Source: Candidatus Accumulibacter necessarius
Lineage (GTDB): Bacteria > Pseudomonadota > Gammaproteobacteria > Burkholderiales > Rhodocyclaceae
Direction of reading: 5' to 3'
DNA length: 64,000 bases
Assembly (NCBI GenBank): GCA_017302435.1
Contig: JAFLDL010000017.1
Location: forward strand, 14,492-78,491
Positions 7,436 through 19,048 of the stretch are shown piece by piece. A program made the position numbers and the translations under genes. The notes beneath the pieces are model-generated. The model was not told the origin of the DNA. It searched no databases and saw only the letters and a list, made by a program, of their open reading frames with translations. Every line of letters starts with the position of its first letter. The first letter of the stretch is position 1.

Positions 7436-7694
7436 GCCCAGGGCGCTGCCTCCACCGAAAGAGAGGCTGGAGGAGTTTCTCAGTAGCAGGAAAAGCTGTT
7501 AGCATTGGTTTCGTCTGTTTGAGCACGAACAACCAATGGACTTTAATCGCGCCAGATCAACCCATCCCGTTGGCGATTGTTCAACGCCGCAGGCTAGCCA
7601 GTGGGCGAGTGTTCCTGCCTCGGCCTTGCACGCCAAGGGCAGTCATCCAGATGGCGAGAGAAGTCGATGATGGCTAGATTGCTTGGAGTTGGAT

Positions 7695-7961
7695 ATGGTA
7701 ACGATTTTCATCAGCAGCCTTCCCTTTCGAGCCGACGAAGCGTTTATCCGCGATCTGTTCAGCCCCTATGGCCGGGTCGTGTCGATTGATCTGCATGCTG
7801 ACTGGGTCAATCCGACCCATGAGCCTTATGCCTATGTCGACTTGGACGCCACAGACCCGCAACTGGCGGTAGACGCACTGGATGGCCAGAAATTTGGCCA
7901 GAACCATATCCGTGTGCATGAGCGGGTGATGCCGCCAAGCCGTGAGGTCAAGGCCGTCTGA
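7695..7961 (+). CDS. RRM-type RNA-binding protein
   Basis: MVTIFISSLPFRADEAFIRDLFSPYGRVVSIDL...YAYVDL...ALDGQKFGQNHIRV has RNP2-like (IFISSL) and RNP1-like (YAYVDL) elements. GGAG lies 7 nt before the ATG. Confidence 0.8.
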   Translation: MVTIFISSLPFRADEAFIRDLFSPYGRVVSIDLHADWVNPTHEPYAYVDLDATDPQLAVDALDGQKFGQNHIRVHERVMPPSREVKAV

Positions 7962-8002
7962 ACGCCCTCCCATTCCCCACTCGTCCTTTCGGAGCGACCC
8001 GC

Positions 8003-9187
8003 ATGGCCAAGGATATCGACCAGCAGATCCTCAATGATCTGCGCCAGTTTGACTTTGTGTCGCAGAAGATCTGGCCCCATGTGCGACGCCTGTTCAAAGG
8101 CAAGATAGCCGCGCGCTGCAGCCAATGCGTCATTTCGTCACATGTGCCCTATATCACGCTGACCGACGGCGTCTGCAACCTGTGCCACGAGCACAACAAG
8201 TTGCGCGCCAATGACGATGAAACGCTCTGGCAGAAGAAGTACGTCGAGCATCAGCGCCAGGAACTGGACCAACTGCTGAAAAGCCATCAGGGCAAAGGAC
8301 GCGACCGTTACGACGCTCTCGTCCTATTCAGCGGCGGCAAGGACAGCGTGTACATGCTGTCGCGGCTACGCAAGGAATACCCTGGCCTGCGCATTCTCCT
8401 GATGACCTGGGACAATGGCTTCTATTCCATACTGTCGCTGCAACGCTGCGAGGAAGTCGCAGTCAAACTCGACCTCGACCACATCGTCTACAAACCGCGC
8501 TCGTCGGTTTACAAGACGCTGTACCGCTATACGCTGAAGAACGTCGAGATGAAGGGCAGCTATCAGACGGTCGACCGCCTGGATGGTACGCTGAACCAGA
8601 TGCTGGGCTTTTATTTCGCTTATGACATGAATATTCCGCTGGTCCTGGCTGGTGTCGATTTCGCGCAGGAACTGATCATGCAGTTCCATTCCTACTACGT
8701 GATGCCGTTCGAGGACATGTGTTCGCGCATCCTGACCGACCGCATGGAGCGCCGGTCAGGCTTCAAGATTGCCGACATCTTCACTGAGGAAGACCAGAAG
8801 CTGTTCTGGGACGGCACCGGCAAGGACCCCGATCGCATTCCGCAATACGTGCTGCCCTTCGTCGCCTGGCGCCCCGACAAGGCGGCCATTCTCGGCGAAC
8901 TCGAACAGGAGAGCCTGATGCCGGAGCGTGACTCATCGCCCATCCTGACAAACAATCAGGTGCTTTCGATCATGACCGCCATCGACATCAAGACGATCGG
9001 CTACTGCAGCTTTGAACCGGAGTTCGCCGAGATGATCCGCTTCCGCGAAAACGATCCGGTCTATTGGCGAAACGCCTTTGAGATGGCCGAGTTCGGTGCT
9101 CGCAACAAGATTTTCCTGCAACGGACGGTTTCAAAGGTGCTGCGCAAGCTTGACCTGACCTATCAAGAGGTGGGTCTCGAAGCCTAG
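8003..9187 (+). CDS. Zn-ribbon + PP-loop ATP pyrophosphatase, N-acetyl-sugar amidotransferase-like (WbuX/PseA-type architecture)
   Basis: N-terminal CxxC...CxxC (CSQCVISSHVPYITLTDGVCNLCHEH) is followed by the PP-loop SGGKDS (ALVLFSGGKDSVYMLSRL). RBS GGAG lies 8 nt upstream. Family assignment rests on motifs only. Confidence 0.7.
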   Translation: MAKDIDQQILNDLRQFDFVSQKIWPHVRRLFKGKIAARCSQCVISSHVPYITLTDGVCNLCHEHNKLRANDDETLWQKKYVEHQRQELDQLLKSHQGKGRDRYDALVLFSGGKDSVYMLSRLRKEYPGLRILLMTWDNGFYSILSLQRCEEVAVKLDLDHIVYKPRSSVYKTLYRYTLKNVEMKGSYQTVDRLDGTLNQMLGFYFAYDMNIPLVLAGVDFAQELIMQFHSYYVMPFEDMCSRILTDRMERRSGFKIADIFTEEDQKLFWDGTGKDPDRIPQYVLPFVAWRPDKAAILGELEQESLMPERDSSPILTNNQVLSIMTAIDIKTIGYCSFEPEFAEMIRFRENDPVYWRNAFEMAEFGARNKIFLQRTVSKVLRKLDLTYQEVGLEA

Positions 9188-9220
9188 CAGCCAAGCGCTT
9201 CGCGGAGGCTGGCTTGCCAG

Positions 9221-10432
9221 TCAGACGTTCTGCCGCAGCGCGTCCACGACAGGAATCTGTGTCACTCGTCGCGCCGGAAACACCGCCGCGGCGACGGTGG
9301 CGACAAGACCGACGCAGAAAGCAAGGATGAGTTCCCTCGGCACGACCTGAATCTGCGCCATGTAGCCGACCTCGCTGCCTGGCGGGGGAGGCATGGGAAT
9401 GCCGATGGCCGAGATCACCAAGGCCAGCGCAACGCCGACGAGCACCCCGGCGGAACTGCCGATTACCCCGATCAAAACATTCTCCAGCATCACCAGGCGG
9501 AATACGTCCAGCCGTCGATTGCCGAGCGCCATCATGGTTCCGAACTCCCCCACGCGCTCGAACACGCTCATGTTGACGCTATTGGCGACACCGAGCAAAA
9601 CCATGATCAGGACGATCAAGCGCAGGACGCCGAACTGCCGGTCGTAGAGCGTGACGGTCTTGTCGTAAAAATCGGACAACTCGTTCCATTTCTTGATCTC
9701 GAACTGGTCGCTGTCAAGCTGCCCCGCGAGCAGTCCTGCGATGCGCGCCGTGTCGAGGGTATCCGTGAGCGACACGACCAAGGTATTGACGCCTTTGGCA
9801 TTCAGGAGCTCCTGGGCTGCGGCCAACGGAACGCGTACCGTGCGAGCGTCGTAATCCCGGGAAAAGCTCCTGAACGTCCCGACGACGTCGAACTCCAGCG
9901 TGTTCAACGCACCACCCGAAGTACTGACCAGAACGGTCACCCGGTCCCCGACGGCGATCTTGAACGCGTCAGCCAGGCCCTTTCCGAGCATGATGCCGTA
10001 GCGGTCCTGATCGTTGAGCGCGCGGCCCGATTCGATGCGGATGAAAGTGCCCAGCTTGCTTTCCCGGCTCGGCTCGATGCCCTCGCCGACGATCGAACGG
10101 TCCGTACGACCGGTGTTGAGAAGGCCGGAGAAGCTGACCCGCGCCATGACGTCAGTCACACCCGGCAACCTGGCGAACTGCTGTCGCAGCGGCTCGGCAT
10201 CGTCGATCATGAATCTGTCTGGCGCTCGCGCCCCCTTCTCGAAGAACCCCTGCGCGTTGACCTGGATATGGCCGAACTGCGAGTGAATCACCGCCTCGCG
10301 CAGCTGTATGAACATGTCCTCGATGAAGCCGCCTGAAAGGACGAGGCTCATGACGCCAAAGAAAACGGCACCGAACGTCATCCCGGTGCGAAGCTTGTGT
10401 CCGAAAAGATTGCGGAGTGCGAACTCGAACAT
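9221..10432 (-). CDS. ABC transporter permease, FtsX/MacB/LolCE type
   Basis: 403 aa. N-terminal TM, ~220-aa periplasmic domain, three C-terminal TMs (LRLIVLIMVLLGVANSVNMSVFERVGEFGTMMALG is the FtsX signature region). Paralogous to the adjacent gene and shares the IPMPPPPG segment with it. Confidence 0.8.
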   Translation of the reverse strand: MFEFALRNLFGHKLRTGMTFGAVFFGVMSLVLSGGFIEDMFIQLREAVIHSQFGHIQVNAQGFFEKGARAPDRFMIDDAEPLRQQFARLPGVTDVMARVSFSGLLNTGRTDRSIVGEGIEPSRESKLGTFIRIESGRALNDQDRYGIMLGKGLADAFKIAVGDRVTVLVSTSGGALNTLEFDVVGTFRSFSRDYDARTVRVPLAAAQELLNAKGVNTLVVSLTDTLDTARIAGLLAGQLDSDQFEIKKWNELSDFYDKTVTLYDRQFGVLRLIVLIMVLLGVANSVNMSVFERVGEFGTMMALGNRRLDVFRLVMLENVLIGVIGSSAGVLVGVALALVISAIGIPMPPPPGSEVGYMAQIQVVPRELILAFCVGLVATVAAAVFPARRVTQIPVVDALRQNV

Positions 10433-10459
10433 GGGTCAGCCCTGATCCATGGTCGGCGC

Positions 10460-11680
10460 TCAGCGGTTGAACCGTAGCGCGTCGACGATGACCATCCCCG
10501 ACGCCGTCCGTGCCGGGATGATGCTGGCGATCAGTGTCGACACCACCGCGAGTATGAATGCGTCGACGGCGAGCCGGGCTGAAACCATGACCTCGCCCAT
10601 GAACCCCCAGGATTGCCCGGGCGGCGGAGGCATGGGGATTCCAATGTAGGAGATGACCCAAGCAAGCATTGTTCCCAATGCCAGCCCCAGAATCCCGCCG
10701 ACGGTGCCGAGCATCGCGCCCTCCACGAGGATCATGCGGAGGATGGTGCGACGTGTCAGTCCCAGCGCCATCGCTGTACCGATCTCGCCCGTCCGCTCCA
10801 TGACACTCATCATCATCGTGTTGAAGATGCTCAGCACGATGATCACGGCGATGATGACTTTCATGACGCCAGCCTGCTTGGCAAGCAGCGACACCGCCTT
10901 GACATGGAAATCGGCGAGTTCGATCCATTCGGTGAAGACCAGGCCCTCGCCTGCATGGCGCTCACGCAGTGTCTGCAACGTGCGACCCGTCTGATCGGTT
11001 TCTTCGAGCAGCACTGCCCAAACGTGGGCGCCATCCACTTTCAACAGCCTCTGGGCGACCGACAGCGGCACCCTCAGGGCGACGTCGTCGTAAGCTTTCG
11101 ACATCGTCGCAAAAAGACCCCTCACCCGACACTCGACCGCATTCACGCTGCCGGTCGCGGTGTTCGCCATGAGGACGACCGAATCCCCGACGTCAACGCC
11201 GAGGTTGGCGGCGAGACCCAGTCCCAGGATAATTCCTTTCGGGTCATCGAGCGAAAGGTTGGCGCCCTTGGGGACCCTCAGCGAGCTACTCAGGACCTCC
11301 TCCTTGTCCGGTTCGACGCCCTCGGCGACAAAGGACACGGTTTCGTCGCCCCTGCTCACCAGGCCGCTGAACGCCAGGCGTCGGCCGAGAACCCGCACCT
11401 CCGGGAGTCGTTCGATGCTGTCCTGTACGGGCGAAGCCTTGGCCAGGAGGTAGCGGAACGGGTCGGCCATGCCATCTTCGGAATACCCCTTCCGCGTTAC
11501 CTGTATATGGCCAAACTGCGAGGTGATGGTGGTTTCCCGATGCTTGAACATGATCCAGTCGACAAAGCCGTTGGCAACGATCAGGGCGGCCACCCCGAAA
11601 GCAATGGCGGCGAGCGCGAACGCGGAGCGTCGTCGTTGTCGCGCGATACTTCGAGCCGCCAGGAAAACGTCGGTCAGCAA
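10460..11680 (-). CDS. ABC transporter permease, FtsX/MacB/LolCE type (paralog of 9221..10432)
   Basis: 406 aa with the same architecture (VIIAVIIVLSIFNTMMMSVMERTGEIGTAMALG; YIGIPMPPPPGQSWG). The track start is TTG, so the start codon is uncertain. Confidence 0.8.
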   Translation of the reverse strand: MLTDVFLAARSIARQRRRSAFALAAIAFGVAALIVANGFVDWIMFKHRETTITSQFGHIQVTRKGYSEDGMADPFRYLLAKASPVQDSIERLPEVRVLGRRLAFSGLVSRGDETVSFVAEGVEPDKEEVLSSSLRVPKGANLSLDDPKGIILGLGLAANLGVDVGDSVVLMANTATGSVNAVECRVRGLFATMSKAYDDVALRVPLSVAQRLLKVDGAHVWAVLLEETDQTGRTLQTLRERHAGEGLVFTEWIELADFHVKAVSLLAKQAGVMKVIIAVIIVLSIFNTMMMSVMERTGEIGTAMALGLTRRTILRMILVEGAMLGTVGGILGLALGTMLAWVISYIGIPMPPPPGQSWGFMGEVMVSARLAVDAFILAVVSTLIASIIPARTASGMVIVDALRFNR

Positions 11681-11858
11681 AGGATGGATTCAGCTCGAGC
11701 AGCTTGCATGAGCAAACGCAGTTGGGTAGGCATTGACGCGATCCAGATTGCGACAGACAAATTATGACACACCCGTGTGCCCAAATGGGCGATTGACGCG
11801 GCTTGATAGGGGCTCGTATCCTTTAAACTAGTCGCTGGATTTCCTGCCCTTTCACCGA

Positions 11859-13535
11859 TTGGCGAAACGCAACGTGGCTAACGACAACGCAACTCCCCTC
11901 GTCAGTGCCTTTGATCCACGCAGCGACCTGCCCGGCGCTCTCGGCGAGTGGCGGGCGCTCCTCGGCGACAGCAACGTGCTCGTCGACGACCAAGCACTGA
12001 CCCATTACTCCCGCACCACGTCCTCGTCCAGCCGGCGCCCCGCAGCGATCCTGAAACCGGGCACGCGGGACGAGGTCGTGCAGCTCGTGAGCATTGCACG
12101 CCGCTGCAGAACCCCCCTGTATCCGCTCAGCACCGGCCAGAACTGGGGCTACGGTGACGCCTGTGCAGTTTACGACGGACAGGTCATCGTCGACCTCGGA
12201 CGGATGAACCGGATCGAGCACGTTGACAGCGCGCTGGGCTACGCCGTCATCGAGCCGGGCGTGACCCAGGGACAACTCTCCCGGCACCTTGCCGAGCAGG
12301 GCGTGCCGTACTGGATCGACTGCACCGGCAGCGGCCCGAATTCAAGCCTTATCGGCAACATCCTCGAGCGTGGATTTGGACACAGCCCCTACGGCAACCG
12401 CTTCCAGAGCTTCTCGGGCATGGAGGTGGTCCTCGGCTCAGGCGAGGTGCTGCGCACTGGATTCGGCCACTTCCCTGGCGCCAGGACCACCCACCTGTAT
12501 CCTTACGGCATCGGTCCCTACCTCGACGGCATCTTCACCCAGTCGAACTTCGGGATCGTCACCAAACTCGGACTGTGGCTGGTGCCAATCCCGGAGTCTT
12601 TCTGTCCGTACATCGTGCTTTTCGACGAGGACAAGGATCTCCTCGAGGCCCTGCCGCAGCTGCAGAAACTCAGGCTTGACCGGATTCTGCAGAGCGTCCC
12701 CCACATCGGGAACGATCTCCGGGCACTGGCTTCCGACGCCCCGTTTCCCCGCGATCGACTGCCCGGGCACGCCCGCCTGACTCCGGAAGTCAGGGCAGCG
12801 CTACGCAAGGGCGCAGGCATCGGCGCCTGGTCGATGTCGGGGGCCTTCTATGGCACTTCGCGCCAGGTCGCACTGCACAAGAGGCTGTTGAAGCGCGCAT
12901 TGGCGAAGGTGGACGCGAAAGTGATCTTCCTGCCACCGCACATCCTGGCCGCCGGCCAGTTGTTTGTGCGCCTCTTCGGCCATCTGGCGCCCTTTCGCGG
13001 CCTGGAGAAGAAGATCCGGCTCGGCTCGGCGCTTGCGGACATGCACAGCGGGAAACCCACCGGGGCATTCCTGCGCGGCTGCTATTGGCGCCACCAGCAA
13101 GGCGTGCCGGCAGATTTCTCCGACCAGACTGATCTCGCGCGAGAACGTATCGGCATCATGTGGATGGCGCCGATCATTCCGTTCCTGCGCGAGGACCTCG
13201 CACTACTCAACCGGGAGATGGACGAGCTTTTCGCCCGCTTCGACTTTGACTGTCACGTCACCGTGAACATGATCAATGAGCGCGCATTGGCGGCCGTGTA
13301 CACAATCGATTACGACGCAGAAGACGAAGCTGAGACCCGGCGGGGAGTGGCGTGCTACGAGGCGGGCGTGCGCAGGCTGTTCGAACTCGGATATCCCTTG
13401 TACCGGGCGTCGGTGCGCGGAATGGGGCTCCTGGCCAGCGCGCGCGACGATGAGTTCGCCGGCACCGTCGCGAGGTTGAAGCGCGCGCTCGATCCGGAGG
13501 GCATCATCGCGCCGGGGCGTTACGACGGGTTTTAG
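11859..13535 (+). CDS. FAD-binding oxidoreductase, VAO/PCMH-type
   Basis: The N-terminal region RRPAAILKPGTRDEVVQLVSIARRCRTPLYPLSTGQNWGYGDA is typical of the PCMH-type FAD-binding domain. 558 aa; TTG start in the track. Confidence 0.7.
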   Translation: MAKRNVANDNATPLVSAFDPRSDLPGALGEWRALLGDSNVLVDDQALTHYSRTTSSSSRRPAAILKPGTRDEVVQLVSIARRCRTPLYPLSTGQNWGYGDACAVYDGQVIVDLGRMNRIEHVDSALGYAVIEPGVTQGQLSRHLAEQGVPYWIDCTGSGPNSSLIGNILERGFGHSPYGNRFQSFSGMEVVLGSGEVLRTGFGHFPGARTTHLYPYGIGPYLDGIFTQSNFGIVTKLGLWLVPIPESFCPYIVLFDEDKDLLEALPQLQKLRLDRILQSVPHIGNDLRALASDAPFPRDRLPGHARLTPEVRAALRKGAGIGAWSMSGAFYGTSRQVALHKRLLKRALAKVDAKVIFLPPHILAAGQLFVRLFGHLAPFRGLEKKIRLGSALADMHSGKPTGAFLRGCYWRHQQGVPADFSDQTDLARERIGIMWMAPIIPFLREDLALLNREMDELFARFDFDCHVTVNMINERALAAVYTIDYDAEDEAETRRGVACYEAGVRRLFELGYPLYRASVRGMGLLASARDDEFAGTVARLKRALDPEGIIAPGRYDGF

Positions 13536-13683
13536 TAGCGACCCGTTTAGCGGCCAGTCCCTGCAGATACCGGAACCACCCGCGCAGCCATTTCGGGGAG
13601 TCGGGGGTTGGCGGTCGCACGGATTGCCTGGCGGATAGACCTACTGGCGCAAGCCTGCTGGCAAAACGGCTGCATGAAGCAGA

Positions 13684-13713
13684 CAGCCCCGCAGGCGGGC
13701 GCCTGCGGGGCTG
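13684..13713. terminator. GC-rich hairpin between convergent genes (possible bidirectional terminator)
   Basis: CAGCCCCGCAGGC-GGGC-GCCTGCGGGGCTG is a perfect 13-bp stem. It lies between the FAD oxidase stop (13535) and the PEP-CTERM gene stop (13770). U-tracts are weak on both strands. Confidence 0.4.
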
Positions 13714-13769
13714 TGTCGTGTCGGACGTCTCGCCCCACCAAAGCGGGGTCAAGACGCTTGGCAACCTGC

Positions 13770-14765
13770 TTAGGCCTTCCTGCGACGGGTGAGGCCCAGG
13801 CCGGCCAAACCGATACCGAGGAGCGCCAGGCTGACCGGCTCAGGAAGGTCCGTCGACTCAGCATTGACAAAGGTCGTGTGGCCGATGCTGAAGCGATAGT
13901 CCCCTGCGTCGAGCCTTGCCTGCACGCCAAAGTCGCCAGAACCGGTATTGACCGTATCGGCGATGTTCAACGTGCCCACCTGGCTATTCAGGCTGAACGG
14001 GTCGTCGAGTTCCGAGCAAGTCCCGGCAACGGAGCACAAGCCCAGGGAGCCCGCAAGACCGCCGTTCGGGTTCCATTCAAGGACCGGAACGAACGCAAAG
14101 AATCCCGGGGCAACCTCGATATTCTTTTCGACTTTCAAACCCCAGTTTACAACCGAATTGGCCGCAACGCCCGGCTGGGCAAGCGCCGCCCGCTGAAACA
14201 GATCGGCAGTGAAGGTGACGTTGAAAGTGTCTTCCTGAAGGAGTGTCAGGGTGAACTCTGTCGTCAGAGTCTGCGCAGAGTTGGCGCCACCCTTCGCGAT
14301 GCCGTTGATGTTAACCTGGGCCTGGGTTTGGGCCAGGGTAGGATTGAGCGGGTCAAGTCCGCTACCGATGTGGTTTACCGACGACCCGGCAAACGTACCG
14401 GCGCCCAGGGTGCCAACGCCGTAGGAAACGTACGGCGTGTACGCCCCTACACTCGCCGTAACGTCGAACGAGGCCCCGGGGTTGGTAATCGGATCGATGC
14501 TCGAGGGCAGGCCCGCCGCAACGACATTATTGATGCTGGCGGTCGGAGACTGCCCGCGCACATCGGTCTTGAGGTTCGTGAAGTTGGCAGCCGTGATGTC
14601 GCCTGTAATCGCGGACTTGAGCCGGAAATTGGACACGATCAACTCCGATTCGGCATAAGCGGCCGGTCCGAACGCGACGATGTCTGCTTGTGCCGGCAGC
14701 CCGTAGCCCGCGAGGAAGGCGGTGCTCACGGCAGCGGCGATTGTATTTAGTTTGCGCATTTTCAA
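13770..14765 (-). CDS. PEP-CTERM sorting-signal protein (secreted, exosortase substrate type)
   Basis: Signal peptide MKMRKLNTIAAAVSTAFLAGYGLPAQA. The C-terminus is DLPEPVSLALLGIGLAGLGLTRRRKA: a PEP motif, a TM helix and a basic tail. Confidence 0.85.
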   Translation of the reverse strand: MKMRKLNTIAAAVSTAFLAGYGLPAQADIVAFGPAAYAESELIVSNFRLKSAITGDITAANFTNLKTDVRGQSPTASINNVVAAGLPSSIDPITNPGASFDVTASVGAYTPYVSYGVGTLGAGTFAGSSVNHIGSGLDPLNPTLAQTQAQVNINGIAKGGANSAQTLTTEFTLTLLQEDTFNVTFTADLFQRAALAQPGVAANSVVNWGLKVEKNIEVAPGFFAFVPVLEWNPNGGLAGSLGLCSVAGTCSELDDPFSLNSQVGTLNIADTVNTGSGDFGVQARLDAGDYRFSIGHTTFVNAESTDLPEPVSLALLGIGLAGLGLTRRRKA

Positions 14766-14878
14766 TCCCTTTTTATCAAAAGTTACGGTTTAACGGATGG
14801 TCAAGACTTGTTGTCGCGAAGACCCCGTTCGGTCCAGGCACCCAATTGCATTAACCCCGGGCATCCTTGCATAGAGCA

Positions 14879-14895
14879 AAGCACATTGCATGCCA
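14879..14895 (-). promoter_or_regulatory. sigma-54 (-24/-12) promoter upstream of the PEP-CTERM gene
   Basis: The minus strand reads TGGCATGcaatGTGCTT. GG and GC have the exact consensus spacing of TGGCACG-N4-TTGCW. It sits in an AT-rich intergenic region ~115 nt upstream of the start at 14765. Confidence 0.55.
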
Positions 14896-15039
14896 TGCCC
14901 CACCAATCGCGATCTTTATCCAATTATTCAACAGCTTAAGAAATACATCGGAAAAGTCTCTGGAGGGCAGTGTAAAAAAATCCGACACCTAGCCCGTGCA
15001 ACCAGCGATAAAAGGCCGATAGCGAACAGAGGGTGAGGA

Positions 15040-15780
15040 TCACTCAGTGCCGCAAGTGTAGCGGCCCGCATCGGTCATGAGTTCCCAGACCGACCTCGCC
15101 ACCCGCTTGATGTTCGGCAAAGTTTCGTTCACGTTGCCCAGGCAGGGAATTCGTTCACCGTGGTAATCGACTGCCGGGCCGATCTGATCGAATGTCGCGC
15201 CGAAGCGGCCCAGGAGTCGATACAGCGCTGGCTCCATTACCGCATAGCCATGGGTCAGGCCGTGCTCATGCATCATCCGCAACTCAGCGGCAAACAGTCC
15301 GAGCGACAGGTGCGGCAGGACGCGGCGCTCGTCCGGCTCGAAATACATATCCACCTTTCCCGAGACGCCGATCAAGCTCCCGGCTTCGCCAATCCGCTTC
15401 TTGAACGCCTTGGAAACCGCGAAGCGCGACAACTCTCCCAAACGGCGCCTCGCCTCCGGATCACGAATCGCCAGACCGTCGTAAAACGGGCAGTGTCTCT
15501 CAATGGGAAAGGGGGCCAAGGGGGCAGACAAATCGGGCAGGATCATCCGCGCGGTGGCCGCGTAAACGCCGGTGGCGCGATGCCTGAGCAGGTAGTGATC
15601 AGAGCGCTCGTCGAAGACATCTCTCTCGATCCCGTTGGGATGGTCTTCGCATCGCTCGAAACCGGTTTCCACGATGTACACCTGATAGCGCAGCCGGAAC
15701 ACCTCCTCGCGGAGCTGGTCGCTGTCTGCATGCAGCAACTCGAAGTACTGATTGAAAGCCGTACACAGGTCAGTTGCCAA
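15040..15780 (-). CDS. N-acyl amino acid synthase-like acyltransferase (PEP-CTERM/exosortase-associated, autoinducer-synthase-like GNAT fold)
   Basis: FNQYFELLHADSDQLREEVFRLRYQVYIVETGFE...DERSDHYLLRHRATGVYAATARMILPD resembles the TIGR03694 family. Start placed at TTG 15780 (GAGG 5 nt upstream). The track start at 15888 is only the most upstream TTG. Confidence 0.7.
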   Translation of the reverse strand: MATDLCTAFNQYFELLHADSDQLREEVFRLRYQVYIVETGFERCEDHPNGIERDVFDERSDHYLLRHRATGVYAATARMILPDLSAPLAPFPIERHCPFYDGLAIRDPEARRRLGELSRFAVSKAFKKRIGEAGSLIGVSGKVDMYFEPDERRVLPHLSLGLFAAELRMMHEHGLTHGYAVMEPALYRLLGRFGATFDQIGPAVDYHGERIPCLGNVNETLPNIKRVARSVWELMTDAGRYTCGTE

Positions 15781-16129
15781 GACAGCCTCACAGATCGCAG
15801 TAAAACGCAGGAAATTCAGCAGCGCAACAGAGGGTATCTTCCCGCCGGTGGCAACGTCAACTTGATGGCGTACCCGGCAGGCTGACAACCTTGTACCGCC
15901 GTGACCGGGAATTGGCTTTGCGAGGACGCAGCCGGCCGGCTCTGCGCCATGTGCTGCCGGCGTCCCTCTGGTTCGGCAAAGTGGCCAGCGCGCTGCCTTT
16001 TGTCACCAGGCACCGTGCCTCGACGGCAGGAAGAAGCGGGATCAAGCTTGCGGTCAATCAACGGTGCTTGCGCTGCCGGCCCGGCGCGCAACCGACTCGC
16101 CGAGACCTGGCAAGCAGTGAGGAAGCGCC

Positions 16130-17440
16130 TCACCTGTCGGTCATGAAGCGTGTGGCGTCTTCCAGGTCAGCATGCGTACTGCCACTGTATAGCGCATTGA
16201 CGAACTTGCGCCAGATCAGGTCCGGCTCACCCATCCGAAAACCGTAGACGCCAGCCCCCGACTCCCTGGATGCCGCGACCTTGATGCGCGACACTTCAGA
16301 GGGTCCAAGTTGAATCCTCACTTCACCCCAGACATTGATCGGAACAGCATTCCGCGCGTGCGCCTGAAAACCGTAGCGCGAGAGCTGCACGATTTCGAGG
16401 TTGACCTTGCTTTCTGTCCCGTCGGGCGCATGGACAGAAAATCTGGCCGGACACCTGACCGAAAAGCGCCGATGGCGCCTGCGGGCCGTATCGTCCTGAC
16501 TGTCTTCGGAAAGCGCCGGCAGAACTTCCCGGTACGCTGGCAGGTCGTAGATCGTATGCAAAAGGCACTTCTTGCGATCACTCAACTGGCTGAAGACGCT
16601 GGTGCGAACATTGAAGAAATAGTCGAGCAGTTCCGGCGTCAGCACCGGATCGTTGGTGGTATAGAAACGGCGTGCCGGCAGTTTGATGTTGGGCAGCTTC
16701 ACCTCGGTGAAAAAGGCATGGAGATTTCGCTTCGGTGCTTTGGAGGAATAGTGTTTCCTGAAGATCTCCGGCGCAGTACTGAGGTCGAGCGTCGCGCCGA
16801 TCGCCGGCGCGCCATTGACGAAATCGTAATTCTCGACCACATTCTGAGTCAGGCGCTTGAAGAACAGCAGTGATTCGTACATCTCGATGTGGCTGGGATT
16901 GACTGCAATCACCAAGTGCCGGGTATCAAAGAAGGTCGTGCAATATTCGTACATGAACTTCATCAGCGGAAACAGAATCGTTCCACCGGTGCGGCGAAAA
17001 CGCCGGTGGATCGCCAGTGCCGACACCTCGGCGATGTTTCCCTTCTTCTCGCGCAGTGCCGTCAGGTCGAAGATTCTTTGGAGGGGAAAACCCAGGACAC
17101 TCTCCCGGATCAGGGACAGGGTCCCAACCACCTCCCCGTCGTACTTCGCACAGAGAGTCGTGGTTGTCGGCAAGGCATGATAGATGGTCACCCGCATCCC
17201 GGAAGGATCCGGCCGCATGAACTTGCTACCGACATAGGCATCGTGCAGCAGGGTGAAACACGCTTCGAGTTCTTCCTGCGTCTCGGCGATCTTCAGCACC
17301 AGGCGTTCATCCGGCGCTGGATCGCAATCAACGAAATTTCGGTACACGGCAAAACGGCTTTCTCGTGGGAGAAAGTTGAACCACTTCCTCAACGTCCCGC
17401 TTAGCAGCTTTCGTGCCGGCGAGACCAGTTTTCTGATCAT
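16130..17440 (-). CDS. FeeM-like N-acyl amino acid synthase domain fused to a C-terminal PilZ-like domain
   Basis: N-terminal part: LKIAETQEELEACFTLLHDAYV...GEVVGTLSLIRESVLGFPLQRIF...AEVSALAIHRRFRRTGG (GNAT/FeeM-like). C-terminal part: RRRHRRFSVRCPARFSV...EIVQLSRYGFQ (PilZ RxxxR plus a degenerate D/NxSxxG). Start at ATG 17440 with RBS GGGGAG 4 nt upstream. Confidence 0.7.
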   Translation of the reverse strand: MIRKLVSPARKLLSGTLRKWFNFLPRESRFAVYRNFVDCDPAPDERLVLKIAETQEELEACFTLLHDAYVGSKFMRPDPSGMRVTIYHALPTTTTLCAKYDGEVVGTLSLIRESVLGFPLQRIFDLTALREKKGNIAEVSALAIHRRFRRTGGTILFPLMKFMYEYCTTFFDTRHLVIAVNPSHIEMYESLLFFKRLTQNVVENYDFVNGAPAIGATLDLSTAPEIFRKHYSSKAPKRNLHAFFTEVKLPNIKLPARRFYTTNDPVLTPELLDYFFNVRTSVFSQLSDRKKCLLHTIYDLPAYREVLPALSEDSQDDTARRRHRRFSVRCPARFSVHAPDGTESKVNLEIVQLSRYGFQAHARNAVPINVWGEVRIQLGPSEVSRIKVAASRESGAGVYGFRMGEPDLIWRKFVNALYSGSTHADLEDATRFMTDR

Positions 17441-17743
17441 CACACTCCCCAGGCAGCCACTACCGTTGAAAAAAGCATGCCCGCCCGCTGGCACGAGCAC
17501 TGCCGCCTTGTCCCTGGACATCCTGATGCGCGGCCAGTTTATCGCATACTTCGCGCAGAATGGCACGCACAATCGCACAGACTACGATATACCGATCCGA
17601 AAGCGAGCGAAAGCAGCACCAGGCCGATATCCCGCTCACCGCTTTTTCGCCATGCGTGTGAGCGGAATCGGCGCCATTCCCAAGACTGAATTTGGCCAGC
17701 CTGTTGACCCGTTCCGAAAGGATCTCGGCGAGGCAGATCATTG

Positions 17744-17811
17744 CCGGAGATGGCGACGAACACGGACTTTCCCTTGCTCATTTTCGTCCCCTGCTGACGT
17801 TCGATTGGCGA
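17744..17811 (-). repeat. 68-bp duplicate of the mnmA leader/5' end (copy A, downstream of mnmA)
   Basis: By hand alignment about 59 of 68 positions match 18981..19048 at an offset of 1237 bp. The 45-bp core 17767-17811 has 2 mismatches. Translated, it gives MSKGKSVFVAISGND against mnm[18 protein letters not shown]. Confidence 0.8.
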
Positions 17812-17917: not shown

Positions 17918-19018
17918 TCAGGCAATCACGCCCCCACCAAGGCAGACCCGGCTTTCGTAGACCACCACCGATTGCCCCGGCGTGATTGCCCATTGCGGCT
18001 CGGCGAAGCGGATCAGGCACGCGTCGCCGCCGACGCGTTCGATTTCGCAGGGGGCGTCGGCCTGGCGGTAGCGCGTCCTGGCGGTATACACCCAGTGTGC
18101 ATGCGGCGGCTCGCCGGCCACCCAGGACAGGTCCCAGGCGCTCAGCTCGTCGGCCAGCAGCGCCGGATGCGTGTGCCCCTGAACGACGTAGAGGACATTG
18201 CTGGCGATGTCCTTCCCGGCCACGAACCAGGCGTCGTGGTCGCCACTCGGGCCGCTCCTGCCCCCCTTGACGCCGCCAATGTGCAGGCCCTTGCGCTGGC
18301 CGATGGTATGGTAGGCAACGCCATCGTGCTCACCGAGTACCCGGTCGTCGTCGAGGCAGCGGATCTCGCCCTTCTTCGGCGGCAGATAGCGCATCAGGAA
18401 CTCCTTGAACGGGCGCTCGCCGATGAAGCAGATGCCGGTCGAATCCTTCTTCAGCGCGACGTGCAGGCCGGCGGCCGCGGCGATCCTGCGCACCTCGCGC
18501 TTGTACAGGTCGGCCAGCGGGAACAGCGTCCTGGCCAACTGCTGCTGGTTGAGGCGATGCAGGAAGTAGCTCTGGTCCTTGGTGCCATCCTCGGCCTTGA
18601 GCAACTGCCAGGCGCCCTGGAACTCGCGCACGCCGGCGTAATGACCGGTGGCGATGCGGTCGGCACCGATCTTCAGTGCGTGCTCGAGGAAAGCGCTGAA
18701 CTTGATCTCCGAGTTGCAGAGCACATCCGGATTCGGTGTCCGGCCAGCCTCGTACTCGCTGAGGAAATGGGCAAAGACGCGTTCCCGGTATTCGCTGGCG
18801 AAGTTCACCACGTCAACGTCGATGCCGAGGGTGTCGGCAACGCTCATCACATCGACCAGATCCTGGCGCGATGCGCAGTATTCGTCGGTGTCGTCGTCCT
18901 CCCAGTTCTTCATGAACAGGCCAACCACCTGCCAGCCCTGCTGCTTGAGCAACAGGGCTGCCACCGCCGAATCGACGCCGCCGGACAAACCGACGACCAC
19001 TGTCTTTCCCTCGCTCAT
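17918..19018 (-). CDS. mnmA: tRNA 2-thiouridine(34) synthase
   Basis: [43 protein letters not shown] (PP-loop), ...TGHYA...DQSYFL...: full-length MnmA-like sequence, 366 aa. Confidence 0.95.
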
Positions 19019-19048
19019 TTTCGTCCCCTGCTAACGTTCGATTGGCGA
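18981..19048 (-). repeat. 68-bp copy B of the repeat (native mnmA 5' end, 12-nt spacer and 3' end of the upstream gene)
   Basis: Partner of 17744..17811. Covers the last codons of the 19031..19672 gene (SPIER*), the intergenic spacer and the first ~13 codons of mnmA. Confidence 0.8.

Follow-up and report, generated by a model that had tools for sequence, protein, structure and literature searches.

The genome of “Candidatus Accumulibacter necessarius” carries, beside mnmA, a locus that combines an RNA recognition motif (RRM) protein, a PP-loop enzyme, two permeases, a flavin oxidase, a PEP-CTERM protein, and two genes for N-acyl amino acid synthases (NAS). It lies in a stretch of 64,000 nucleotides (hereafter, the window; contig JAFLDL010000017.1 of assembly GCA_017302435.1). 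Our analyses suggest that it is probably one variant of a hypervariable island, usually situated beside mnmA, for the synthesis, tailoring, and membrane extraction of a lipid derived from N-acyl-tyrosine and tied to the XrtA/PEP-CTERM floc system.

Gene content of the mnmA-side locus

Genes were called from a listing of open reading frames (ORFs) and from hidden Markov model (HMM) scans against curated cutoffs. Coordinates are those of the window throughout; G000 denotes this genome, C-numbers its contigs, L-numbers comparison loci, and G-numbers comparison genomes. Searches at the level of the order used a sample of 301 genomes of the order, and those at the level of the genus used 40 Accumulibacter genomes. 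Every gene and domain named in an initial annotation of the window was recovered by the ORF listing and HMM scans, the PilZ domain weakly, at or near the positions first proposed (Table 1), and HMM placement did not move the families into unrelated, well-understood pathways.

The region was correctly described as free of housekeeping genes. Its GC content had been called low, and it was indeed lower than the genome mean (0.602 versus 0.627; standard deviation, 0.022), yet not exceptional, with about 10% of same-length genome windows equal or lower. The AT-rich character of two intergenic stretches held (GC content of 0.48 at 14766-15039 and 0.55 at 7440-7690). A foreign island argued from GC content was rejected as a strong argument, the region sitting at the 10th percentile of the genome. 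As had been reported, the window contained no exosortase or polysaccharide export genes: the sole exosortase of the genome was located at G000:C20:46331-47083 (252 bits), and export and chain-length genes were found on the same contig.

Table 1. Features of the locus in window coordinates
Feature	Position	Strand	Match or basis
RRM_1 protein	7695-7961 (alternative TTG start 7683)	+	PF00076, E 7e-11
Zn-ribbon PP-loop ATP pyrophosphatase, fee-cluster type	8003-9187	+	TIGR03573 on N-terminal half only
permB, MacB_PCD+FtsX permease	9221-10432	-	PF12704, PF02687
permA, second MacB_PCD+FtsX permease	10460-11680	-	PF12704, PF02687
FAD_binding_4 oxidase, VAO/PCMH family, 4-phenol-oxidizing subgroup	11859-13535	+	PF01565, 96 bits
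EDSAP-1 family PEP-CTERM protein, predicted exosortase substrate	13770-14765	-	NF041538, 148.9 bits
Predicted sigma-54 -24/-12 promoter of PEP-CTERM gene, TGGCATGCAATGTGC	14881-14895	-	Motif match
PEP-CTERM box (enhancer motif 1), TGTCGGATTTTTTTACA	14971-14987	-	Motif match
TIGR03694 PEP-CTERM/exosortase-associated N-acyl amino acid synthase	15040-15888	-	239.2 bits
FeeM-type N-acyl amino acid synthase, PilZ-like C-terminal domain	16130-17440, ORF extendable to 17578	-	PF21926, 149.5 bits
69-nt direct repeat copy at island/mnmA junction	17743-17811		87% identity to 18980-19048

Predicted synthases, tailoring enzymes, exporter, and PEP-CTERM gene

The TIGR03694 protein scored above the family cutoff (111.95 bits) and was the only member in the genome, which also encodes the exosortase, PrsR (732 bits), and at least 10 PEP-CTERM genes. 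In A. proximus (L002), a 90%-identical counterpart likewise stands next to FeeM-PilZ. The closest species genome for the FeeM-domain protein was also A. proximus (92% identity). This protein matched the FeeM structure 2g0b (E 1e-5), and the LAEV motif of FeeM, which holds the proposed catalytic glutamate (Glu95; the residue count is uncertain by one position), pairs with IAEV in the window protein; with PF21926 above threshold and this motif kept, the protein is of the FeeM type. The PilZ call made for its C terminus stood as a weak one (PF07238; E 0.008; 16.9 bits versus a cutoff of 22.5). The match covers the C-terminal 126 residues, in which RRRHRR (RxxxR) is present and QLSRYG stands where (D/N)xSxxG is expected; a 37%-identical protein in L181 has precomputed FeeM and PilZ matches. 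Nas343 and Nas354, two-domain enzymes with a NAS plus PilZ-like architecture from a slaughterhouse biofilm metagenome, make N-acyltyrosine in Escherichia coli (Thies et al. 2016, PMC4897644). The window protein, with its FeeM-like domain, PilZ-like C terminus, and retained AEV motif, is likened to them by architecture; Nas354 was absent by name among the best 120 relatives. OxzA and TyzA also favor Tyr/Phe (PMC10404671; bioRxiv 10.1101/2020.06.11.147165).

A different synthase-flavoprotein pairing was seen in Dechloromonas agitata (L074:9980-12654), where a FeeM::PilZ orthologue runs into the beginning of a gene for a GlcD-like FAD oxidase (FAD_binding_4 plus FAD-oxidase_C); the same overlap occurred in 10 other Azonexaceae loci.

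The flavin oxidase of the window aligned with p-cresol methylhydroxylase (PCMH; 1dii_A, E 2e-79) and with eugenol and vanillyl-alcohol oxidases (VAO; E 1e-57 to 1e-64). Its FAD_binding_4 domain, its similarity to PchF, VAO, and EUGO, and the conserved phenolate triad Tyr95/Tyr473/Arg474 place it in the VAO/PCMH family's 4-phenol-oxidizing subgroup. FeeG of the fee cluster and CndG of chondrochloren biosynthesis have been placed in the same subgroup (PMC11350588), and both catalyze oxidative decarboxylation of an N-substituted tyrosine via a p-quinone methide (PMC11350588; PMC11959600; PMC8762209). By analogy, the window oxidase probably acts on the tyrosyl side chain of an N-acyl-tyrosine. No gene for a cytochrome c subunit or an aldehyde dehydrogenase adjoins it, and identity as a catabolic p-cresol methylhydroxylase was rejected on gene context and HMM cutoffs.

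The SGGxDS motif of the PP-loop enzyme (S110, G111, G112, D114, and S115 kept) and four cysteines were invariant in 28 homologues. Its AlphaFold (AF2) model (pLDDT 93) best matched, over the whole length, the Legionella N-acetyl sugar amidotransferase 8wex (TM 0.58; 16% identity), followed by TtuA, NcsA, YcfA, asparagine synthetase, nitrile synthetase, and LarE. With this motif, and with PP-loop enzymes as its only fold matches, the protein belongs to the PP-loop ATP pyrophosphatase (adenine nucleotide alpha hydrolase) superfamily. Enzymes of the kind matched here adenylate a carbonyl or carboxyl group and then swap the oxygen for nitrogen or sulfur. The window enzyme itself probably adenylates a carbonyl group of the lipid, as judged from these homologies. 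Identity as a WbuX-type N-acetyl sugar amidotransferase was rejected: TIGR03573 scored 98 bits versus a cutoff of 203.2 and aligned over profile positions 4 to 174 of 344 only, such that the protein is like the family and not a member of it. A protein from “uncultured bacterium CSLC2” (AAM97301.2) was 65% identical; we take CSLC2 to be Brady's environmental DNA (eDNA) clone carrying the fee cluster, a clone name that was not met in the literature consulted.

A small RRM-like ORF lay directly upstream of the PP-loop gene in 6/6 contexts from several phyla, the window included (the other five enzymes were 50 to 71% identical to that of the window), and alignment found these small ORFs to be mutually homologous. 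The pair was also present in 4 sister Accumulibacter genomes, and protein P0077 is a natural RRM::PP-loop fusion. Because it is fused to the PP-loop enzyme in P0077 and is its upstream partner in all six contexts, the RRM gene is considered part of the module. The RNP1 motif of the RRM protein is degenerate.

The permeases had been described as an ATPase-less pair. No ATP-binding cassette (ABC) ATPase is indeed present in the window, but one was found at a second locus: C35:26799-30018 encodes a LolD/DevA-like ATPase followed by a DUF1302 barrel, together with a divergently transcribed PF17131 LolA-like gene and no adjoining permease. The ATPase, DUF1302, and LolA-like proteins were 66%, 44%, and 69% identical, respectively, to versions clustered with the permease pair in L105. 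With PF12704 and PF02687 in both permeases and a predicted cognate ATPase gene on C35, the system falls among type VII (MacB/FtsX) ABC systems. The permeases scored 104 and 114 bits against the LolCE model TIGR02212 (cutoff, 362.45), and the genuine housekeeping LolCE/LolD form a separate locus (LolCE at C59:8814-10046, 511 bits). Tandem permA/permB genes were found in 45/301 genomes of the order and in 39/40 of the genus. DUF1302 was likewise found in 39/40 Accumulibacter genomes, and in four single-contig genomes it lay 1.3 to 2.7 Mb from the pair; because both are kept yet lie so far apart, the split of the exporter is genus wide. From these homologies, permA/permB are most likely the heterodimeric membrane half of a predicted Lol-like exporter whose ATPase, LolA-like, and DUF1302 parts are encoded elsewhere. 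PermA was 45 to 59% identical to that of most congeners, no closer than to that of other families; DUF1302 was 61 to 89% identical. Both permeases also contain a GIPMPPPPG segment late in the FtsX domain (approximately residues 343 to 351 of 403), and these segments show as a 51-nt direct repeat (9378-9428 and 10617-10667; 76% identity).

The PEP-CTERM protein belongs to the EDSAP-1 family (NF041538 cutoff, 100 bits; TIGR02595, 21.2 bits versus a cutoff of 16) and ends in the tail DLPEPVSLALLGIGLAGLGLTRRRKA. A literature search on “EDSAP” returned nothing relevant. Upstream of the gene, in order, are the box TGTCGGATTTTTTTACA, 75 nt, the sigma-54 site TGGCATGCAATGTGC, 115 nt, and the start codon. 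The proteobacterial PEP-CTERM regulon consists of a motif 1 with TTTACA, a spacer of about 63 nt, and a sigma-54 -24/-12 motif 2 (Haft 2006). The window gene has this architecture as a predicted promoter, and the genome encodes PrsR (C46:23122-24453), with PrsT also on C46. Box and sigma-54 site recurred in this arrangement ahead of a PEP-CTERM gene in L054 and of both EDSAP orthologues (L105 and L107); ahead of PEP-CTERM genes in L049 and L108, the box stood alone. Genome wide, 19 exact TGTCG-N7-TTACA sites were found versus about 3.7 expected, and at least 10 precede PEP-CTERM proteins. By itself the sigma-54 pattern was not enriched in the window (78 matches versus 81 expected); the site is meaningful because it is paired with the enhancer box and conserved upstream of orthologues. 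On this evidence the PEP-CTERM gene is a predicted regulon member placed in the island.

The box also occurred outside PEP-CTERM genes. Three tandem paralogous secreted proteins of 545 to 589 amino acids (C40:15195, 17976, and 20721), all ending in CATSLTAP and without a PEP-CTERM tail, have an exact box before each gene and a sigma-54 site before two; they are predicted to be non-PEP-CTERM members of the PrsR regulon.

Co-conservation of the module and variation of the Accumulibacter island

Neighborhood searches, proposed initially as a check, found with two independent seeds the same families clustered in many Burkholderiales families and in other phyla. The PP-loop gene was present in 16/301 genomes of the order. 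Eleven flanks were fetched; in 7, direct similarity revealed within 10 kb of it one or more of four neighbors (the permease pair, a VAO-type oxidase, a synthase of the TIGR03694/FeeM kind, and an EDSAP-like gene), with permA/permB orthologues at 47 to 57% identity and the VAO-type oxidase at 34%. The remaining 4 flanks (L101 to L104) contain a short FeeM-type gene beside the XrtA-system genes TIGR03007, TIGR03027, and TIGR03018. The EDSAP orthologues of L105 and L107 (30 to 35% identity) lie inside the same module, PEP-CTERM genes recur inside it in comparison loci, and PrsT (TIGR02917) flanks it in L101, L105, and L107. With the permeases as seed, 17/20 fetched flanks from many families contain the PF17131 LolA-like gene, the LolD/DevA-like ATPase, and DUF1302; ThiF was found in 13/20, a FeeM/TIGR03694 synthase in 14/20, and XrtA markers in 12/20. 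The permease pair was found in 8/15 genomes with the PP-loop gene versus 36/285 others (Fisher P = 3e-4, kinship ignored). Gene order and orientation vary between genomes, which argues for functional coupling and not inherited synteny.

Distant genomes hold several of these families in one cluster. L181, a metagenome-assembled genome (MAG) labeled Deltaproteobacteria by NCBI, unites VAO, RRM, PP-loop, FeeM::PilZ, FtsX, ABC ATPase, DUF1302, and LolA-like genes. L179 has, in addition to two FeeM genes and a desaturase gene, genes for RRM, PP-loop, glycosyltransferase, FtsX, ABC, VAO, methyltransferase, and LolA-like proteins, and in a member of the Pirellulaceae (L180) RRM, PP-loop, and glycosyltransferase genes lie approximately 4 kb from an exosortase gene. 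In a Bdellovibrionaceae MAG (L178:1391-11176), a VAO-RRM-PP-loop operon adjoins a shikimate/TyrA operon encoding chorismate synthase, EPSP synthase, DHQ synthase, DAHP synthase, and chorismate mutase/prephenate dehydrogenase, an arrangement that suggests a dedicated tyrosine supply.

The FeeM-PilZ gene as seed gave a different picture: orthologues (65 to 92% identity) occur throughout the Rhodocyclaceae, and about 75 of 80 loci lack the neighbors seen in the window. This seed misled because the genome has two copies. The window gene is the second, and an 84%-identical paralogue (C3:29873-31234) adjoins an AraC regulator and a MeaB/B12/methylmalonyl-CoA mutase fusion, a context kept in about 26 Accumulibacter loci (e.g., L004). 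Random juxtaposition, first suggested by this search, was thus rejected: the widespread orthologue is the C3 copy, and the window copy is lineage specific.

Of 16 Accumulibacter loci examined, 6 (G216, G306, G338, G335, G330, and G304) have the permease pair no more than a few kilobases from mnmA, and the window and A. proximus islands also start at mnmA; the accompanying genes differ between species. Four sister genomes (G306, G308, G335, and G338) share a VAO, permA, permB, PP-loop, and RRM block that is 84 to 93% identical to that of the window. Other Accumulibacter loci hold ThiF and an Acg-type nitroreductase at the same site. The A. proximus island comprises FeeM-PilZ, TIGR03694, GDSL, metallo-beta-lactamase (MBL), Acg, and ThiF genes; in UW-1 (G313), the pair is separated from mnmA by a GDSL lipase gene and also adjoins an MBL-fold gene, and an Acg-type gene is found just upstream. 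PP-loop types (19 genomes) and the Acg nitroreductase type (9 genomes) occurred together in 0/40 genomes (P = 0.001), and this genome has no ThiF or Acg orthologues. At the mnmA end of the window island, the 69-nt direct repeat covers the 5′ end of mnmA at 18980-19048 and duplicates it at the island junction; the repeat, which flanks mnmA, is possibly a scar left by recombination.

The PP-loop type of G304 is a distant one, accompanied by an acyl-AMP ligase and a thioester reductase. In L100 to L108, L173, and L183, the genes that follow this distant type (28 to 35% identity) nearly always encode a FadD-like acyl-AMP ligase and a thioester reductase (NAD_binding_4), a combination predicted to be a third tailoring cassette.

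Predicted lipid pathway and alternative explanations

The initial annotation had proposed production, modification, and export of a lipo-amino-acid, or of an envelope component modified with lipid, tied to PEP-CTERM sorting, and recurrent clustering together with the HMM identities supports that prediction. In the pathway outlined here, the substrate, reactions, transport, and link to flocs are all drawn from homology and gene context. The FeeM::PilZ and TIGR03694 synthases would N-acylate an amino acid, most likely L-tyrosine, from fatty acyl-acyl carrier protein (ACP) or acyl-CoA, and the PilZ-like tail may gate this step by cyclic di-GMP (c-di-GMP). The FeeG/CndG-like flavoprotein would then form, by hydride abstraction at the p-hydroxybenzyl group, a p-quinone methide, which could either undergo oxidative decarboxylation to an N-acyl 4-hydroxystyryl enamide or be resolved by desaturation to an N-acyl-dehydrotyrosine. 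The PP-loop enzyme and its RRM-fold partner would adenylate a carbonyl of the lipid with ATP for nucleophile exchange. PermA/PermB, with the C35 ATPase, the LolA-like periplasmic carrier, and the DUF1302 outer membrane barrel, would take the lipid out of the inner membrane and bring it to the cell surface or outer membrane. Finally, the EDSAP-1 protein, expressed from the PrsR/sigma-54 promoter, would be processed by the C20 exosortase, and lipid and protein would share the same extracellular matrix.

Parts of this set have known relatives (the fee cluster, FeeG/CndG, NAS plus PilZ proteins, and the NAS/PEP-CTERM link), and the initial view that it is not a described system holds for the combination, which was not met in the searchable literature. 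Brady, Chao, and Clardy reportedly described in 2002 the fee cluster of eDNA clone CSLC-2, with FeeM as an N-acyltyrosine synthase and FeeG as an oxidative decarboxylase. The window resembles that cluster in its FeeM-family synthase (PF21926), in an oxidase of the 4-phenol subgroup of FeeG, and, if CSLC2 is the fee clone as we presume, in the 65%-identical PP-loop protein. It differs in having no dedicated ACP, acyl-activating enzyme, or reductase and in adding the TIGR03694 synthase, PilZ-like tail, Lol-like permease pair, and PEP-CTERM gene. Craig, Cherry, and Brady are said to have linked NAS genes to PEP-CTERM/exosortase systems (TIGR03694) in 2011. The proposed stieleriacine cluster of Stieleria maiorica similarly comprises synthases, a TcdA/ThiF-like enzyme, an oxidoreductase, a methyltransferase, a PEP-CTERM gene, and transporters (PMC7293339). 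The TIGR03694 member of the window also adjoins a PEP-CTERM gene; in contrast to these systems, its exosortase and exopolysaccharide genes lie on other contigs and its tailoring enzymes differ.

OxzB (with OxzA, from Pseudoalteromonas rubra and others) and TyzB/TyzC (with TyzA, from Mycobacterium tuberculosis) turn N-acyl-Tyr into oxazolones (PMC10404671; bioRxiv 10.1101/2020.06.11.147165). Those pathways, like the one predicted here, run from an N-acyl-Tyr/Phe synthase to an adenylating enzyme that depends on ATP and a flavin oxidase, and ThiF plus nitroreductase hold the same place in the module in sister genomes and most Burkholderiales. Either cassette, ThiF/nitroreductase or PP-loop/VAO, would thus join adenylation by an ATP-dependent enzyme to flavin-dependent oxidation, with an N-acyl aromatic amino acid as the substrate. 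This genome, which has neither ThiF nor Acg, does not encode an OxzAB/TyzABC system; with those two replaced by the PP-loop enzyme and VAO-type oxidase, its product is probably not an oxazolone. The Lol-like exporter resembles LolCDE-LolA-LolB in its two MacB_PCD+FtsX permeases, LolD-like ATPase, and LolA-fold periplasmic protein (type VII ABC). It differs in that all of its scores fall below the Lol equivalog cutoffs, the true LolCE/LolD being at C59, in having a DUF1302 barrel instead of LolB as the outer membrane partner, and in being split over two loci. A link between an exporter and such cassettes was absent from the searchable literature, Craig, Cherry, and Brady 2011 lying outside that search; the OxzAB preprint contains no occurrence of “transporter” or “exosortase” (bioRxiv 10.1101/2020.06.11.147165), and a literature search on DUF1302 plus LolA returned no such exporter, its match being an unrelated RND efflux system. 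New here are the fee-type VAO, RRM, and PP-loop cassette as an alternative to the OxzB type, the RRM/PP-loop pairing and fusion, the genus-wide exporter split, and the variable Accumulibacter island.

Several observations weigh against a single lipid pathway. One would not expect an enzyme acting on lipids to have an RRM partner, FeeG was absent by name among the best 120 relatives of the oxidase, and in the FeeM-PilZ protein the PilZ HMM score falls short of its threshold and the second of the c-di-GMP motifs is degenerate. The FeeM-PilZ orthologue conserved in the genus sits elsewhere, beside AraC and the methylmalonyl-CoA mutase fusion. No PEP-CTERM box precedes any other gene of the locus, and its PEP-CTERM gene belongs to a regulon whose members, at least 10 in number, are spread across the genome. 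The block shared with the G306 group occurs there without EDSAP, TIGR03694, or FeeM-PilZ within the approximately 7 kb examined. The window arrangement is thus a lineage-specific mosaic: its five-gene block is like that of the G306 group and its synthase pair like that of A. proximus.

These features suit a reading in which separate units (the RRM/PP-loop/permease/oxidase block, a PEP-CTERM regulon member, and a duplicated synthase pair) have come together at an mnmA-side recombination hotspot and form no single pathway. The 84 to 93% identity of the block to four sister species without the other three genes nearby would then be matched by the 90 to 92% identity of the synthase pair to A. proximus, whose cassette differs, and the 69-nt duplicated mnmA 5′ end at the junction and the genome-wide scatter of PEP-CTERM genes would fit as well. 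Such an assembly nevertheless seems unlikely to us, given that the same families come together again, in varied orders, in many unrelated genomes and phyla, a signature of functional coupling, and that L181 unites VAO, RRM, PP-loop, FeeM::PilZ, and the exporter.

Alternatively, the Lol-like route might carry proteins, with the exosortase joining cleaved PEP-CTERM proteins to the amino-acid lipid and the exporter moving the lipid-anchored proteins to the surface. The predicted N-acyl-Tyr, enamide, or dehydro products offer no free amine as a transpeptidation acceptor, L178 and L182 hold the cassette without a visible exosortase, and OxzAB products are free small molecules; we therefore regard this as quite improbable, even though the module lies in or beside XrtA loci in 12/20 cases, PEP-CTERM genes recur in it, LolCDE/LolA-type parts usually handle lipoproteins, and the acceptor nucleophile of exosortase was left undefined (Haft 2006).

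A role for the RRM/PP-loop pair in RNA modification, and for the oxidase as a catabolic p-cresol methylhydroxylase, neither related to lipids, is very hard to credit: a true RRM_1 match, the many PP-loop enzymes that act on tRNA (TtuA and NcsA among the fold matches), the abutment of the pair on mnmA in four genomes, and the annotation of oxidase homologues as 4-cresol dehydrogenase by the Joint Genome Institute (JGI) are set against the lack of a cytochrome c subunit or aldehyde dehydrogenase beside the oxidase, the co-occurrence of the pair with FeeM synthases, VAO oxidases, glycosyltransferases, and exporters across phyla, the close homologue from the CSLC2 clone, a small-molecule amidotransferase as best fold match, and the degenerate RNP1 motif.

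The N-acyl-tyrosine lipid pathway that we favor would bear on surface biology. Accumulibacter drives enhanced biological phosphorus removal, its usefulness rests on flocs and granules, and related sludge bacteria need PEP-CTERM proteins and XrtA polysaccharide loci for floc formation. A probable N-acyl-tyrosine pathway with FeeG-type chemistry would here be placed in a defined organism, a dedicated Lol-like route would account for the lipid reaching the cell surface, and the differences in surface from one Accumulibacter species to another could stem from at least three alternative cassettes. The conserved RRM/PP-loop enzyme pair, with its homologue from the CSLC2 eDNA clone, offers a testable handle. 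A bolder proposal, to which we give little credence, is that the island determines which chemistry the lipid anchor, or lipid partner, of exosortase-processed PEP-CTERM proteins has, that the permease pair is a specificity-matched extractor passing lipid or lipid-linked protein to a conserved ATPase/LolA-like/DUF1302 core encoded elsewhere, and that the RRM protein is a new non-RNA subunit of the PP-loop enzyme. PermA/PermB diverge as fast as the tailoring genes within the genus. Were the lipid-anchor proposal true, Accumulibacter species would differ in floc and granule surface chemistry as O-antigen loci do between serotypes.

Two minor observations concern other FeeM-type genes. Two contigs of a “Methylotetracoccus” MAG (L022 and L023) carry FeeM::PilZ and TIGR03694 genes at 81% and 72 to 78% identity to those of the window and are probably misbinned Accumulibacter contigs. 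In the present genome, a short FeeM-like gene (266 amino acids) is translationally coupled to a bactofilin-domain gene at C32:19135-20627 (L161:7135-8627), and a sigma-54 enhancer-binding protein gene lies nearby at C32:15334-16641.

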